A stretch of 63,918 bases of DNA, filler included, from Aduncisulcus paluster (Eukaryota): NCBI GenBank assembly GCA_024181965.1. It is 10 parts of 10 records of this genome, joined end to end, with 100 filler letters (N's around TTAATTAATTAA, not from the genome) between each part and the next. Parts side by side here need not be neighbours in the genome. Positions count along the whole stretch, not along the records: positions 45,214 to 51,035 come from BQXS01011564.1; 9 more parts are not named here. One strand, given 5' to 3'. Shown here one piece after another: positions 45,214-56,234 of this stretch. The position numbers and the translations under genes were made by a program. The notes under the pieces were generated by a model. It had not been told where the DNA came from, ran no database searches, and worked only from the letters and a program-made list of their open reading frames with translations. The stretch's first letter is position 1. Each line of letters starts with the position of its first letter.

Positions 45214-46842
45214 GCCGAACTATTACATTCATTTGCCGAAAAGAAATGGGATAATTTTGACCTCGAAACCCAACTATTTTCTTCCATTTCCTCTTCTCTT
45301 TCTTCCATTTTACAGTTCTGCTCTGAGATCAACGATGTCCAGATATTGGGAAGAATTTTAGAAAGAATTAGACGTACTGTTAAATCAGAGTTCTCAAGAC
45401 GCAATCAAATCTCTCATGCATCTGCTTCCTCTTCTCTTTCCACTGTTCCCTCAACGAAAGCTCCATCGACTGAACATGATAGCACGATAGTACAGTATCC
45501 AGACACAGATAATCTCGAACATGACTCTGATATTTCCACTCCTGTTGTGTGTATCGATGGTGAAGTTGAAAGAGCTCCCTTTCAAAATGAACCTGCGTGT
45601 CCTGATCTGCCTCCTCCCGAGTCCTGTGAATTCCTCCAGTCTCTCTCCTCTCTCCTCCTCTCCCTTATTCCTCCTCTATCTGGCCGATGTTCTATTCTAT
45701 CAACTCTTTCTGAACGCTCAGCCTTACTCGAGACTCTTGACCAGCTCTGCGTGAAAGAAAAGATCCTCACAGATCGCATGGAACATGTTAGAATGACGAG
45801 GGGACGAATGTACCACACAGCCCTTGCTCAAATCGATGATGACCGTTCCCTTGTGAAAGACGAGAAGATCAAAGTCTGTGTGAGTATCCGTGAAAAGGAC
45901 GAGGAGCTATGCGATAAGGTTAAGGTCTTCAAATGTACGTGGGGTGATGGATTCAGCGTTTTAGACCAAGAGAGAGAAATTCAACTCGGTCTTTCTGCAC
46001 CAAAGACTGATATCGGTGTCGTTTCCCAGGAAGAAAATACTGAAAATATTCAAGACCATGAAGCTATTAAAGACGAAAAGAACGAAGGAGAAATTATTGA
46101 TACCTCAAAATCTCTTGATTACAAACCCTCTCTTCCTCTTTCTACTCCTCTTTCTACGAAGGATAGACCTTTTTTGCACAATGGTATAAATTTGAGTGAT
46201 GTTGTTAAGAAAGATCGTGATGAGTTTGTGAGCTGGTTAAAGAAAGAGATTAGTGATTCTCTGTTCTCGAGTATAGAATCCTCTATCGAAACCAAACGTA
46301 TCAGGCAAGCCAAAGAATTGAAGGTGCTAAGTCCATCTGAAGGAAGTCCTGAACGCGAGAAGGATATTATGACCAAAGCTGACGATGACGATGAACTGAA
46401 AGAGGAAGAGGAACTGAAAGAGGAAGAAGAATTGAAGGAAGAGTGGACAGAGGAAGAGGTTTCAGTGTCGATATTGCAAGCAATCGGTCTTGATATTAAA
46501 GACCAGGACCTCATAGAGCCAGGGAGAGAGACTGTAGTATTTGAGCAGGAACAACAAGCTATGCAAAAAGACCAAGAAGAGGAAGAGGGCAAAGATATGA
46601 TTGAAAAAAATGAACAAGAACCAGTCGAGATGGAAAGTATGCCACCCCCCGAATTCCAAGAGAGTAAGGAATCAGTTCAAAGTGAGCAGACAGATCTTGA
46701 TCAACATGAAAAAGAAAAGATCACTGATGAGCCTGAAGACAAATTGAAGCGAAGAAGGAAGAAGATCCATAAAAGACGTAGGAAGCTTGATGGTCTTAGT
46801 ATCACTCAGCTCTCTCAAGTTCCATTTGATCAACTTCTCTGA
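45214..46842 (+). CDS. Hypothetical protein with acidic C-terminus and basic tail; 5'-partial
   Basis: Frame open from the contig start (AELLHSF...) to TGA at 46842; ELKEEE repeats; KLKRRRKKIHKRRRK. Confidence 0.75.
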   Translation, partial: AELLHSFAEKKWDNFDLETQLFSSISSSLSSILQFCSEINDVQILGRILERIRRTVKSEFSRRNQISHASASSSLSTVPSTKAPSTEHDSTIVQYPDTDNLEHDSDISTPVVCIDGEVERAPFQNEPACPDLPPPESCEFLQSLSSLLLSLIPPLSGRCSILSTLSERSALLETLDQLCVKEKILTDRMEHVRMTRGRMYHTALAQIDDDRSLVKDEKIKVCVSIREKDEELCDKVKVFKCTWGDGFSVLDQEREIQLGLSAPKTDIGVVSQEENTENIQDHEAIKDEKNEGEIIDTSKSLDYKPSLPLSTPLSTKDRPFLHNGINLSDVVKKDRDEFVSWLKKEISDSLFSSIESSIETKRIRQAKELKVLSPSEGSPEREKDIMTKADDDDELKEEEELKEEEELKEEWTEEEVSVSILQAIGLDIKDQDLIEPGRETVVFEQEQQAMQKDQEEEEGKDMIEKNEQEPVEMESMPPPEFQESKESVQSEQTDLDQHEKEKITDEPEDKLKRRRKKIHKRRRKLDGLSITQLSQVPFDQLL

Positions 46843-47229
46843 TCCCTTACGTAACAAATTCTTACAATACAGTACACAAATTATTTGGAAGACAATTTCT
46901 TAATTAAAATCTTATTTATTCATCAAAGTTCTATTCCAATTCAAATGATTGATTCATGACTAATCCGACTGGATTCTGCCAACATTATACTGAATGATTA
47001 CGTGGTACTCAAAAGAATCCATTAATTGACTTATTATTGAACGCTGATAAATAATTCTATTATAATATCTATCTATATCTAATATCTTGTATCTCAATAA
47101 AGATATTTATAGTTACAGTATACAAATTGTTATATAACTATTACAAACAATATTAATGCCTGTCAACGAATAAGATAATAGAAGTAAACGGAACTATAAA
47201 AAAACAATACCGAGACGCAATGCAACAGT

Positions 47230-48204
47230 CTAGAGTTTTTTTGAGCATTCTTCATGAAACATTCCAATACAATCCAAGCCGATGGGATAAAAATCTGATG
47301 GTTTCTTCCATTCATGAGGGAATTCAGTCACTCGAGGAGATTGTGAAAGAGAGATAGAGTCATCAATCCAAAGACATGACAATCCACCAGAAAACCCCCT
47401 CGAACTTAGAGTAGAACCACAATAATCACAATATGGTGCACGAAATGATGAAAAATGCTGAGCAATAGACAGAATAACACGCTGTAAGCACTCAATTTCA
47501 ATCAGAGGAGTCCGAATTCGATGTTGAGAGACGATGAGTGTTTTCAAACGACGTGATAGGATTGATGTAACATTATTCAGCCATTCGTGTGCACAAAATC
47601 TTGGCGGAATATTCGGAAAACCAATTTCTTGCGGTAACAAAAAAAAGAATTGGTTATCAAGCGGAGCACAAGAAAACCAAACAATAACCCCACAGTTAAT
47701 CCGAACAACCACATTAAAGTATTGTTTAAAAGAAATTACCAAACCAACAATGTGTTTTTCTCGAGAAGAATAACTGATGGTCTTTTTTGGAATATCCTTC
47801 AGAGAAGGAATCGAAATTCCCTCGATTGGTTCTTTGGATGAAATAAGTTTTTCATAATCTCCAAATTTGCTCCAAAGACTATCATATGTCGCTATCTTTC
47901 CCGATGATTTTTCAATTGAATCAAAAATGGAAGAAATATGTTCAGAAAAACTGAGATAATCCATTTTAGACATAGAAGGTGGAATATAAACCGAAGGATA
48001 TGTGCAATAATCCTCATCACTCACATATAAAGGAGTAAAACTCAATATTGAATGTTTTCCATTCATTATATGACAAAACAATTCTAGTCTCTTTCTATCA
48101 TTAAGAAATAAAATATTTATGAGAAAAAAGCTTCAATAATAACAACAAATATTTCAAAAGAAACTAGAGCAATCAACATACATAAGTACATCATTTCGAT
48201 CCAT
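47230..48204 (-). CDS. Mediator subunit MED27-like protein, 2 exons (48204-48182, 48094-47230), 295 aa
   Basis: The 87-nt GTATGT...TAG intron 48181-48095 joins MDRNDVLI to KRLELFCH. C-terminal F.APYCDYCG..L...LW...MFHEEC matches the Med27 C2HC zinc-finger pattern (F..PC..CG..L...W...FH..C). Confidence 0.55.
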
Positions 48205-48350
48205 AAAACGTATCCAACTTGAGATTTAATTATATTATTGATATTAGCTTGTTTCAAAAAATCGTTTTTTTAAATATTATCTTCTATTGCAGAAAATAAC
48301 CAGAAACGATTCTATGACTTCTTCTTGAAAACAAAATACAAAACCATAAT

Positions 48351-48821
48351 ATGGGCTGTTGTTGTTCAAGTGCAGCTTATGCTGGAACTGAATTAGAAGG
48401 ATCACCCTCTCCTTATGTCCGCGGATCTTGTTGTTATAGTTCTCGACAACAAATGATTTATGATGGACTCTTACCTGAAGGTATTTTATTCTTTGAAAAA
48501 GGTGTTCGTGTTAAAATGAGGATTAGAAATCTTGTTACTCCAAAGAGGTTGATTGGAGCGAAGTTAAGCATTTCATACGGAATAGCTGCTCTTACAAAAA
48601 CAAAAATTCTCATCATGCCTGGTTCATCTCGAGATGCCTTAAGAATTGATTGGAGGACTTTGTTTGACACTGCCATAATCTCAGAAGATCCTAAAGATGG
48701 AATTACCATTCATGTCGACTTCGATAATGGAGGAATGGCAGAATACACTGTATTATTAACTCAACCACGATTATTTATGGAAAAAATTGATGAAATGAGA
48801 GCTTCTTTTGCCTCAAGGTGA
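48351..48821 (+). CDS. Small dually acylated (MGCCCS) protein with probable PH-like domain
   Basis: N-terminal Gly2/Cys3-5/Ser6 myristoylation plus palmitoylation signature; beta-rich core GIAALTKTKILI...LRIDW and a terminal helix. Confidence 0.75.
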   Translation: MGCCCSSAAYAGTELEGSPSPYVRGSCCYSSRQQMIYDGLLPEGILFFEKGVRVKMRIRNLVTPKRLIGAKLSISYGIAALTKTKILIMPGSSRDALRIDWRTLFDTAIISEDPKDGITIHVDFDNGGMAEYTVLLTQPRLFMEKIDEMRASFASR

Positions 48822-48976
48822 TCGTGACATATTATCTTTGCTGATTGGATAATAATTATCCAACAAATATCTTTCTTCTTCTTCTGTTTATAAAAATTTC
48901 AGAACATTTTTATTTTTCGTTTACAAGTTGATTTGCCGTATACTGTACTATACTATAAATCTATGAGCTATTCATT

Positions 48977-49040
48977 TAGCAAAAGATTGCCAAAACCACC
49001 ATGGTCCGACTACCTACAAGTAGGTTATCAGTACCGGTGC
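48977..49040 (-). ncRNA. Candidate Fanzor omegaRNA scaffold
   Basis: Begins 26 nt after the Fanzor stop. CACC-GGU-A-CUGAU-A-ACCUA(CUUG)UAGGU-A-GUCGG-ACC-AU-GGUG long stem, then UGGCAA(UCUU)UUGCUA hairpin. Three G-U pairs form only on the minus strand. Confidence 0.6.
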
Positions 49041-49066
49041 GAAAAAAATAGTAAAAAATAGTATAA

Positions 49067-49525
49067 CTAAGGAGAAAAAGCTTGTAGATCATCTACAGGA
49101 TGATGATCATCCAAAGAACTCGGACGTATGAAAGCTGATGGAAAAGGCTGGCAAAAATGTTTTTTTAGTCCAAGAATAGCAATATTATATGCAGCTGAAT
49201 AGTCCCTATTGCCTTCAAAACCACACTTTCCACACTTTCTCATTCGCCTTTTTTCATCGACCGTTGACAATTCATTGTGGCAACATGGACACAACTTGGA
49301 CGTATGGTATTCATCAACTTCAATGAATATACCCCCTCTTGATTGAACTGTTTGTTTTAATTTGTTCGGAAAGGAAGAGGTACTGGACGTAGATCTATAG
49401 CCTTTATATGTGGCTTTAAATGGTTTATCTCTACCCAGGTGTGCCCGTCCACAGTCCCCATAGCAGACCAACAGCTGTTTTTGTTCTTTTTTGGCCCTCT
49501 TCAGAAGTGTGGAAGCATACTTCAT
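49067..49525 (-). CDS. Fanzor/TnpB-family RNA-guided nuclease, C-terminal fragment (RuvC-II, Zn finger, RuvC-III); RuvC-I absent
   Basis: LLVCYGD...KG..S...IEVDEYHTSKLCPCCH...CGKC....NRDYSAAYNI...P.AF.RP, the Fanzor-type motif series. Confidence 0.85.
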   Translation of the reverse strand: MKYASTLLKRAKKEQKQLLVCYGDCGRAHLGRDKPFKATYKGYRSTSSTSSFPNKLKQTVQSRGGIFIEVDEYHTSKLCPCCHNELSTVDEKRRMRKCGKCGFEGNRDYSAAYNIAILGLKKHFCQPFPSAFIRPSSLDDHHPVDDLQAFSP

Positions 49526-49672
49526 GGGATACTATCTGGCTTGAAGCCACAAGTAATTGTTACTGCCTTGTATTCAGATGATTCGTCTTATTAAATAAAT
49601 AATTAATATTAATAAAATGCATATAAAATTAAACTTAAATAAAAACAGCTTATAATAATGACACATACCCAT
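49522..49672 (-). pseudogene. Spliced N-terminal remnant of the Fanzor gene (exons 49672-49669, 49586-49522; MDESSEYKAVTITCGFKPDSIP*)
   Basis: ATG G|GTATGT...TAAG|AC GAA defines an 82-nt AT-rich intron 49668-49587 with the host donor consensus. The peptide's TGA overlaps the ATG of the RuvC fragment. Confidence 0.55.
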
Positions 49673-49849
49673 TTTTAAAAAAAAGATGGACTTTTTGACG
49701 ACAGAACGAAGAAAAAAATTGTGTAAGTATAGCAAAAGCTATCATATATTTGTAATTTTATTTGACTTTTTCATTTTTACTGTTGATCTCCTGTCATCCT
49801 TGTCAAAGTCATGCTTCTCAGTTTCGGGAAGAAATACAATAATTTCAAT

Positions 49850-51035
49850 ATGGGGAGTACAGATTCAAAATATAAGGGCAATTCCATTGCTTCTTCTGTT
49901 CCTCTTCATCATGTTGAAATCAATTTTGTCAGTACCTCCGCAAGAGAGGTGAAAATAAGAGGATATACAAGAGGAGGAGAATGGAATGATTATAAAATGT
50001 CGAAAATATCGTCAGAAACATTTAAATTGAGTTTAGAATTACCCAAGGGCTTATTTTTTTTATAATTTTATTGTGGACTCCACATCGGATGGGATCTCCA
50101 GTTCATCAACCCACTAAAGATGTCACTCTGAGTGCTCAGCGGGCTGCGACACCTTCCTTGGTGAAGGAAAGGGATAGATCTTCCTCTCATTCCTCTGGAA
50201 GAAGCGTTGATCATCGTCCTCCAAAGGGTAGAGACGAGAGGTTTAGAAGCTCTAGTCGTGCTGATATGATTCCACGAGCCCCCATTCCACTCGAAGAATC
50301 GTTTAATCTCTTCAAAGAGAAATTCAGTCAGGAGATGCCTTCTCTGAGTTGGTTTGTCTCCAAAGAACGAAATACCCCTCAAGGATAGATATAAAGCCGC
50401 CCAAGATTGGTGGAAATATGGTACAGATCGCTGTGATATCATCGCCAAAAAAAAGAAGGCATCAACAACAGAGAAACAAGAGGCTTTGATTTATTTGGCC
50501 TTTTCAATAATGATTGATCCTCTGGGAACATCCCAGCCTTCAAAACACCAAGGAGCTCTTGATCTTTGTGTTGAATTCAGTCAGAACAAGAACCAATCCA
50601 CCTTTTTCCCAGCATTCTTCATTGCAGCTCATTTTCTGGCACGTGAAGGGGCATTTGCTCCTGCCCAAAATGCTTTACATCAATTCTTAATTGTAACTGA
50701 TGTCAGAGTTTCAAGAGGAACTTGCAAAGAAGAAAGGCTTAAAAAAAACAACTCAAGATCCTTTAAAAACCGAATATAAATGCCCATTATATGATAAATT
50801 GCCCAATATTTCGATGCTAAGGATGTGGACATGGTATTTATTTGCTCATATTCTTGCCAGAAACCCCGAAAGTGATCCTACACATGTTGCTATTCCCGTG
50901 AGGCGAGGCATGATGGAAATTTCCGGATTTGATCCTTCTTCAATTCCCAATTTTGCCCAACTTCCTCCCCTTTTGTTGGTATTAGCACGTATGGCTCAAA
51001 GAGTCGGTAATCTTGATGCTACAGAGGAGTTGTAC
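49850..51035 (+). CDS. N-myristoylated CBM48 (AMPK-beta-like glycogen-binding) protein with helical/TPR-like C-terminus; four +1 frameshifts; 3'-partial
   Basis: MGSTDS start; AREVKIRG....W.DYKM....F.LSLELPKG.F.YNFIVD..W pattern of CBM48 once single extra bases are skipped near 50054-50061, ~50086, ~50360 and ~50700. Confidence 0.65.
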
Positions 51036-51137
51036 NNNNNNNNNNNNNNNNNNNNNNNNNNNNNNNNNNNNNNNNNNNNTTAATTAATTAANNNNNNNNN
51101 NNNNNNNNNNNNNNNNNNNNNNNNNNNNNNNNNNNAA

Positions 51138-56127: not shown

Positions 56128-56234
56128 CGGCAACTGACTGGAGTCGAACCAATACTTTCCACACAAATCTAAGAGTTTTTAATCAACTGATTTAAACGCT
56201 GTAGATGGATGTTCTTCCATTGAACTACTGTACC
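56128..56234 (-). tRNA. Intron-containing tRNA-like gene or pseudogene, apparent anticodon ACA (Cys)
   Basis: D-arm GTTC-AATGGAA-GAAC, anticodon stem TCCAT/GTGGA with loop CT-ACA-G, 35-nt insert after position 37 (56198-56164), T-arm ATTGG-TTCGACT-CCAGT, then a T6 terminator. The acceptor stem is imperfect. Confidence 0.55.

Follow-up and report, generated by a model that had tools for sequence, protein, structure and literature searches.

A probable 5'-truncated remnant of a Fanzor-type nuclease gene in the metamonad Aduncisulcus paluster

The open reading frame and its active site

The window analyzed here is a 63,918-nucleotide stretch of DNA, filler included, from the draft genome of Aduncisulcus paluster (assembly GCA_024181965.1), a free-living fornicate (Metamonada) with a draft genome of 29.4 Mb, 39% guanine plus cytosine (GC), and 11,743 predicted introns (PMC9933649). 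In the record that supplies positions 45214 to 51035 (BQXS01011564.1), a gap of approximately 1 kb between two host genes holds a minus-strand open reading frame (ORF) that resembles the C-terminal part of a Fanzor, a eukaryotic homolog of the RNA-guided nuclease TnpB. Three features of this locus are central:

49067-49525 (-): remnant ORF of 152 codons plus stop, the predicted C-terminal part of a Fanzor-type nuclease (domain matches; alignment A1)
49008-49533 (-): stretch common to the window and a longer genomic copy, P0001 (tblastn; contig depth; a diverging contig)
48975-49047 (-): multicopy two-hairpin segment of approximately 70 nucleotides (nt) (contig loose ends; depth; fold)

The ORF begins with MKYASTLLKRAKKEQKQLLVCYGDCG, and VDEYHTSKLCPCCHNEL and then CGKCGFEGNRDYSAAYNIA follow farther on. 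It contains VCYGD, VDEYHTSKLCPCC, CGKC, and NRDYSAAYNI, the four motifs quoted in a sequence-only reading of this DNA that preceded our analysis and that had also described the ORF of 152 amino acids (aa). Profile searches bear out the TnpB/Fanzor identity proposed there. The ORF matches the Pfam family PF07282 (Cas12f1-like TNB domain) at an E value of 1.2e-15 (57.9 bits against a cutoff of 26.3) and the NCBIfam model NF040570 (guided_TnpB, the RNA-guided endonuclease TnpB family) at 3e-13, over the last 68 profile positions (320 to 387 of 389). Among solved structures, Cas12f and TnpB chains match best (E 4.2e-6), and the chain of the mimivirus Fanzor2 L79 matches the part from RuvC-II to RuvC-III (E 3.2e-4). 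As sequence comparisons, these domain matches are far beyond chance, and the ORF is firmly predicted to be the RuvC-II, zinc finger, and RuvC-III end of a TnpB-superfamily nuclease with a Fanzor-type active site. Also, FIRPSSLDDHHP at the C terminus of the ORF lines up with FCYSHQDLHHP, the tail of full-length paralogs, indicating that the native stop codon has been retained.

The active site exemplifies a rearrangement described in the parts of two papers that were available to us, according to which Fanzors and a subset of TnpB proteins have an inert glycine or proline at the canonical glutamate position and an alternative glutamate approximately 45 residues on, six before the first CxxC (PMC10530073, PMC10711439). 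The sequence-only reading had recognized this arrangement in the window ORF: G23 (of YGD) occupies the canonical RuvC-II place, and the alternative glutamate is E72 (VDEYHTSKLC). By our count, E72 lies 49 residues on. E72 stands six residues ahead of the first CxxC; C79xxC82 is followed by 15 residues, C98xxC101, 6 residues, and D108, so that the zinc finger (C79xxC82...C98xxC101) and RuvC-III (R107-D108) both fall within the ORF. The resulting pattern, ExxxxxxCxxCx(15)CxxCx(6)D, fits the expression that Yoon et al. give for the rearranged site, ExxxxxxCxxCx(12,18)CxxCx(4,8)D, in the part of their paper that treats it (PMC10711439). Alignment A1, which comprises eight A. paluster sequences, has 41 invariant columns; these include the cysteines, R107-D108, and both G23 and E72, which are invariant in eight of eight sequences.

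The breakpoint and the second copy

A word-index protein search with the ORF returned one match, GKT28503.1 of A. paluster (P0001), which differs from the window ORF at only one of the 134 aligned residues (133 identical) and confirms that the host is a metamonad, as had been suggested. By tblastn, residues 43-178 of P0001 align to 49531-49124 at 99.3%. The 42 residues that P0001 has upstream of this part (containing AKRFWRREKFGG and ending in LSAKRFWRREKFGGTIRRDK) align with full-length paralogs (at LSEAKFWRRQRFGRDLMLEKK) and have no counterpart in the window by tblastn. When 12 family proteins were compared with the whole window by tblastn, all 12 matched 49097-49531 and everything else had an E value of at least 0.2; RuvC-I and all parts preceding it (WED and REC) were found by these queries nowhere in the window. 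Similarity ends at 49533, and the earlier proposal that RuvC-I and several hundred codons have been lost therefore stands.

Two public sequencing runs, X1 and X2, contain the stretch, and their contigs were compared over 45214-51035. We treat X2 as RNA and X1 as DNA because a GT..AG joint present in X2 is absent from X1; X2 is not recorded as RNA, and its status derives solely from this joint, which marks an intron in a neighboring host gene:

48095-48181 (-): host intron of 87 nt, GTATGT...ATAG, seven codons after the start of the neighboring gene (X2 joint from 48094 to 48182)

The joint, with CT..AC ends on the plus strand, lies 1.4 kb from the remnant, and the spliced neighbor reads through it continuously, from MDRNDVL into IKRLELFCHIMNGKHS. 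The start-proximal 87-nt intron of this host gene (47230-48257, minus strand) is a useful model of A. paluster introns in its own right.

Contigs of both runs bear on the breakpoint. A contig of the RNA run tracks the window to 49533 and then continues for 255 further letters, the start of which encodes KFGGTIRRD of P0001. In the DNA run, contig depth over 49008-49402 is 2458 to 2665, approximately twice that of the flanks (1346 over 45214-49008; 1100 to 1162 over 49505-49857), bearing in mind that contig depth is not copy number or expression level. Moreover, a DNA contig of single-copy depth (49505-49602) spans the 49533 junction. From the doubled depth, the contig that leaves at 49533, and the bridging contig, we conclude that the genome has two near-identical copies of this stretch. 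The window copy stops at 49533/49534, where it adjoins single-copy intergenic DNA. Within the window there is no second copy of 48900-49600 (the longest other match is 19 nt), and, as possible element ends, the sequence around the fragment offers only short, low-identity pairs of inverted or direct repeats. In the public gene model of P0001, the remnant is fused to a dephospho-CoA kinase (CoaE, E 2.4e-41) after SAFIR; this fusion is most likely a gene-model artifact.

Relatives in A. paluster and subfamily placement

An exhaustive HMMER search of 1.84 billion representative proteins yielded 167 matches at E values of 1e-3 or below and two at 1e-10 or below, both of which (P0002 and P0003) come from A. 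paluster. P0002 is a partial protein of 146 aa from a transcript set and is 49% identical to the window ORF, and P0003 has 559 aa (E 1.1e-23) and is 46% identical over its own residues 409-547. The 90% cluster of P0003 adds P0154 (560 aa), P0155 (458 aa), and P0153 (263 aa, partial), and that of P0002 adds P0152 (328 aa, partial). A RuvC-I motif, GIDPG or GVDPG, is present in P0003, P0154, P0155, and P0152; the long proteins have it as GIDPGR or GVDPGR and also carry an upstream TDG motif. These full-length paralogs sit on other contigs of A. paluster, where the family has at least eight members on different contigs and at least three subfamilies, 45 to 51% identical to the window ORF. The expectation of a full-length relative elsewhere in the genome is thus borne out by P0003 and P0154. 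The window subfamily's own parent was not recovered, since P0001 extends past the edge of its 6,095-bp contig.

Word-index protein searches matched only A. paluster proteins. Two further proteins on A. paluster contigs, P0158 and P0159, are Fanzor pieces fused to unrelated genes in the public models and have 85% identity with P0003 across approximately 14 to 15% of the query (P0003 residues 290-559). The fused models of P0001, P0158, and P0159 indicate that more fragments of the family are scattered in the genome. NCBI and UniRef already list the A. paluster proteins under the automatic name "Cas12f1-like TNB domain-containing protein," and the family is therefore unremarked rather than unseen.

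For placement, a FastTree phylogeny was built on the shared domain from 144 rows and 110 columns, with P0160-P0180 and 14 too-short rows of 158 left out. A branch with support 76 separates the eight A. paluster rows from all others, and these rows are nested in a 42-tip group (support 92) with all five named fungal rows and long (>500 aa) Fanzor1-like proteins. The closest named proteins beyond A. paluster belong to the early-diverging fungi Coemansia, Podila, Actinomortierella, and Linnemannia, and the rest are metagenome or Logan proteins. In a first pass over the position of the shifted glutamate, 54 rows had proline, 41 had glutamate, and 36 had another pattern; the 42-tip group is mostly of the shifted-glutamate type, and the proline-type rows fall outside it. 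Some of the profile comparisons agree with this placement and others do not. The A. paluster alignment matches that of 15 long relatives over 166 columns with hhalign (99.8% probability, E 3.6e-30). A mixed profile (A2), which also includes 15 non-Aduncisulcus rows, matches SpuFz1 at 9.2e-36, GtFz1 at 2.1e-31, and PpFz1 at 7e-27, with weaker matches to mimivirus Fanzor2 (2.2e-19) and to TnpB and Cas12f (1.4e-11 and below).

Nevertheless, several results weigh against a Fanzor1-like assignment. The best match of a profile made only from A. paluster proteins (A3) is mimivirus Fanzor2, at 3.4e-5, followed by Cas12f and TnpB, and no Fanzor1 chain is among its 19 matches at E values of 1 or below. 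The AlphaFold2 model of P0003 is poor, with a mean predicted local distance difference test score of 54.9 and a predicted template modeling score of 0.40. Foldseek searches with this low-confidence model gave 36 matches at E values of 1e-3 or below, all of them to nucleases of the TnpB superfamily. AsCas12f leads this ranking, SpuFz is tenth (rank 10), and ApmFz2 follows at rank 23, so that the searches confirm the superfamily and fail to split Fanzor from Cas12f. On balance, the A. paluster family is probably Fanzor1-like, a placement that is not settled. Scans of viral and metagenome contigs with profile A3 gave 68 and 393 pattern matches, respectively, none of which was confirmed as a close relative.

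Three kinds of described systems come nearest to the A. paluster family. Like SpuFz1 and the Spu-1 elements of Spizellomyces punctatus (Protein Data Bank [PDB] entry 8GKH), the A. paluster proteins are eukaryotic nuclear TnpB homologs, as judged from the available parts of the relevant papers (PMC10432273, PMC3627910). Further likenesses to Fanzor1 are the glycine at RuvC-II, the glutamate six residues before CxxC, the many partial copies per genome, the DPG RuvC-I and upstream TDG motifs of the full-length paralogs, and the A2 profile matches listed above (9e-36 to 7e-27). The differences are that the host belongs to Metamonada, that the A. paluster-only profile misses Fanzor1 structures, and that P0003 is only 13 to 22% identical to the 15 non-Aduncisulcus rows of A2. 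Also, the window copy is the last quarter of a gene only, and the omega-RNA of the A. paluster family is a candidate.

Fanzor2 proteins are short and resemble TnpB, and they are associated with IS607. Fanzor2 of Acanthamoeba polyphaga mimivirus (L79, PDB 9B0L; PMC11832414) is the best solved match of the A. paluster-only profile, but this match is limited to the C-terminal approximately 90 residues. Unlike Fanzor2, the A. paluster proteins have 559 to 560 aa and group with long, fungal-type proteins. With the prokaryotic "TnpB2" proteins, such as that of Thermoplasma volcanium, they share the shifted catalytic glutamate and the TNB domain; however, TnpB2 resides in IS200/IS605 elements of archaea and bacteria, as far as the consulted part of PMC10530073 describes it, whereas the window copy is part of a eukaryotic chromosome, flanked by host genes, and has fungal proteins as its nearest named relatives.

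Interpretation of the locus

We propose that the locus is, very probably, a non-autonomous, 5'-truncated remnant of an RNA-guided nuclease gene of the Fanzor type, most likely of a Fanzor1-like one. This reading builds on the demonstrated homology, truncation point, second copy, full-length paralogs, and eukaryotic context. A Fanzor-bearing element, or a piece of one, would have landed between the two host genes by transposition, and the part upstream of 49533 would have been lost by deletion or, through incomplete copying, never copied at all. What would be left over is the last 152 codons, with the rearranged RuvC-II, zinc finger, RuvC-III, and native stop, together with the 3' noncoding end of the element. 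Because it is without WED, REC, and the RuvC-I aspartate, the window copy cannot be a nuclease alone.

Two observations count against a simple remnant. First, the 152-codon frame is free of stops and frameshifts. Second, contigs of the RNA run cover the ORF (49007-49372) at a depth of 683, compared with 218 for a neighboring contig. A short zinc-ribbon protein could be expressed from this frame, and the second copy, being 99% identical, could supply the RNA. The youth of the copy, which differs from the longer one by a single amino acid in 134 to 136 residues, explains the open frame. An open frame is no proof of use, and the locus is a case of ordinary decay.

Any present activity of the locus would lie in supplying guide RNA to full-length Fanzors produced elsewhere, not in acting as a nuclease. 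This possibility centers on the two-hairpin segment, which starts 20 nt past the stop codon of the ORF. Its predicted fold (48975-49047) has an energy of -25.7 kcal/mol, compared with -14.6 +/- 2.9 for shuffled sequences (z -3.85; 0 of 200 as good). In both runs, contigs that match only this segment exit the window on either side, with loose ends before it at 48975, 48979 (two contigs), and 48994 and behind it at 49045 and 49047 (three contigs in X1 and four in X2). The summed depth of the bin at 48919-49113 is 11,938 in X1 compared with 1,346 (approximately 9 times the flank) and 2,970 in X2 compared with 218 (approximately 13 times). Considering the several contigs with different flanks and the raised depth, the segment is a dispersed repeat, present in more copies than the ORF and nowhere else in the window. 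Contigs of the RNA-like run X2 cover it. Rfam searches of 48850-49250 at E values up to 5 identified no family, only four chance-level rows, none near its gathering score. From this analysis, the segment is a candidate for the omega-RNA scaffold, the right end of the element, or both.

There is a precedent for such a module. In the available part of one study, S. punctatus is reported to have 134 "ghost" loci that keep the omega-RNA and right-end module without the gene, and ghost omega-RNAs are reported to function with SpuFz1 (PMC10432273). By analogy, the window locus might be dead as a protein gene while the end of the ORF and 48975-49047 are transcribed as omega-RNA, with the host sequence below approximately 48975 serving as a guide used in trans by full-length Fanzors. 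This idea extends our reading of the locus as a remnant and does not exclude it. The strong fold, the wider distribution of the segment than of the ORF, and its raised depth in both runs speak for it. Nevertheless, the fold comes from a single sequence and so has no covariation behind it, the contigs do not give the strand of the RNA, and their depths are neither copy numbers nor expression levels. Also, no Rfam family matches, the segment could equally well be a transposon terminal repeat, a miniature inverted-repeat transposable element, or an unrelated dispersed repeat, and nuclease activity of the A. paluster Fanzors is only predicted. We therefore hold the guide-donor function to be doubtful, if worth entertaining. 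The same tentative standing applies to the larger proposal of a living Fanzor1-like system in A. paluster, the first in Metamonada, that would combine several transcribed full-length genes, a dispersed omega-RNA module of approximately 70 nt, and ghost guide donors.

The sequence-only reading had offered a different account, in which the locus is a small, eukaryote-adapted Fanzor-derived gene with an ATG-G first exon, an 82-nt host-type spliceosomal intron, and then the coding sequence. The elements of this model are as follows:

49587-49668 (-): intron-like GTATGT...AG stretch of 82 nt (motif present; splicing without support)
49669-49672 (-): ATG-G put forward as the first exon (single-copy intergenic DNA upstream of the breakpoint; DNA contigs 49505-49857)

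The model has in its favor a GTATGT donor, a length near that of the verified host intron at 48095-48181 (82 compared with 87 nt), and a similarly start-proximal position. However, the spliced reading gives 22 codons (MDESSEYKAVTITCGFKPDSIP), closes with a TGA at 49524-49522, and is shifted by one base relative to the frame of the 152-aa ORF. Against the family set, the 22-aa peptide has only chance matches of four to six residues (best E 0.8, over five residues), so that no member of the family is like it. The supposed exon 2 straddles 49533, where homology to the longer copy stops; most of this exon lies upstream of that point, in single-copy DNA with no counterpart in the longer copy. The X2 contigs, which do show the host joint at 48094/48182, have no splice joint at 49668/49587; cover there is thin (depth 77 in the bin at 49504-49698, compared with 218 to 683 nearby), and the missing joint means no support only, since contigs cannot prove absence. 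GTATGT occurs 35 times in the window, compared with 20.4 +/- 4.3 expected by chance, and one instance with an AG approximately 80 nt on is therefore unremarkable. An alternative acceptor at 49532 (GATAG/TATCCC), paired by eye with the same donor, is also out of frame with the ORF. An intron-containing gene is thus very unlikely, and the upstream "exon and intron" are unrelated host intergenic DNA. With the intron unsupported, the conclusion that the sequence is eukaryote adapted, which had been drawn from it, has no basis at this locus.

Likewise, it is highly improbable that the remnant is a domesticated fragment, that is, a 152-aa protein with a zinc ribbon and half a RuvC fold that has taken on a new host role, for example in nucleic acid binding. 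The open frame, its ATG, and the cover by RNA-run contigs are compatible with domestication, but the start methionine (49525) is an internal position in the parent protein, as the same methionine within P0155 and P0153 illustrates, and half of a RuvC fold would be unlikely to be stable. In addition, the 99% identity to the other copy leaves no time for selection to show, and the database has the sequence only within a chimeric gene model.

Prokaryotic TnpB proteins are typically 350 to 450 aa in size, and many of the 167 matches have that size and a proline at the shifted-glutamate place. The culture of A. paluster has food bacteria, and earlier transcriptomes were contaminated (PMC9933649). 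Nevertheless, a bacterial TnpB misassembled into a eukaryotic scaffold is effectively refuted, as had been anticipated, because the remnant is on eukaryotic DNA adjoining a spliced host gene; moreover, DNA contigs bridge both junctions to single-copy host DNA, the GC content of 33% is like that of its surroundings in this gene-dense window (33 to 46%), the active site is of the rearranged type, fungi supply the nearest named relatives, the members on different A. paluster contigs form one group, and the viral and metagenome contig scans are without a close relative.

Several other features of the surroundings were recorded. Pfam identifies a family in two of nine neighboring ORFs (WD40 with EF-hand, and leucine-rich repeat), both of a eukaryotic type. 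A scan for bacterial promoters and terminators was at chance level. The plus-strand ORF at 49811-50065 (MGSTDSKYKGN...) has a possible N-myristoylation start, read by eye, and no Pfam match; its start is approximately 320 nt from the breakpoint, and the region once taken for exon 1 and an intron is therefore probably its promoter or 5' region. Over 50284-51035, X2 depth is 29,000 to 53,500, compared with 218 nearby, across the ORFs at 50354-50779 (+) and 50700-51083 (+), which hints at strong expression of a host gene immediately upstream of the remnant. A depth spike at 46384-46578, present in both runs (30,173 compared with 1,346 in X1; 10,628 compared with 218 in X2) and accompanied by small indels at 46414-46417, has the look of a high-copy or simple repeat in or beside the ORF at 45346-46842 (+). 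Farther away, 56129-56234 (-) matches the Rfam tRNA model at 30.2 bits (gathering score 29) over 106 nt, compared with 71 model positions, and may be an intron-containing eukaryotic tRNA gene, for which ARAGORN makes no call. Finally, the window has 22 runs of N, comprising nine pairs of 44-N runs spaced 12 bases apart (e.g., 22718-22761/22774-22817 and 51036-51079/51092-51135) and four 20-N runs; they mark scaffold gaps or withheld sequence, and several of these break long ORFs.

Fanzors are eukaryotic RNA-guided nucleases that are under development as compact genome editors, and how widely they occur among eukaryotes is relevant to the number of times TnpB entered this group. In the part of the literature available, S. 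punctatus has 42 gene-bearing Fanzor loci, of which 19 are full length (PMC10432273); since partial Fanzor genes are so common there, the truncated A. paluster locus is of the usual kind. The same paper, in the part consulted, describes work by Saito et al. with a Fanzor2 from Naegleria (PMC10432273). We found no printed report of a Fanzor in Metamonada, although supplementary host tables may list metamonads; metamonads, Trichomonas, and Excavata are absent from the main texts, as available, of PMC3627910, PMC10432273, PMC10530073, and PMC10711439, as is Giardia from the two searched for it. The locus is therefore an element of a known kind, one usually met as partial copies in the genomes described so far, and we found no printed report for its host lineage.

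A free-living fornicate with a multimember Fanzor family would extend the host range to a deep-branching lineage. P0003 and P0154 are the full-length candidates for testing, with the window locus being only another example of the usual decay. Should the tentative picture of a living system in A. paluster be true, this truncated locus and others like it would be guide donors, here directing the nuclease to the host DNA that adjoins 48975.

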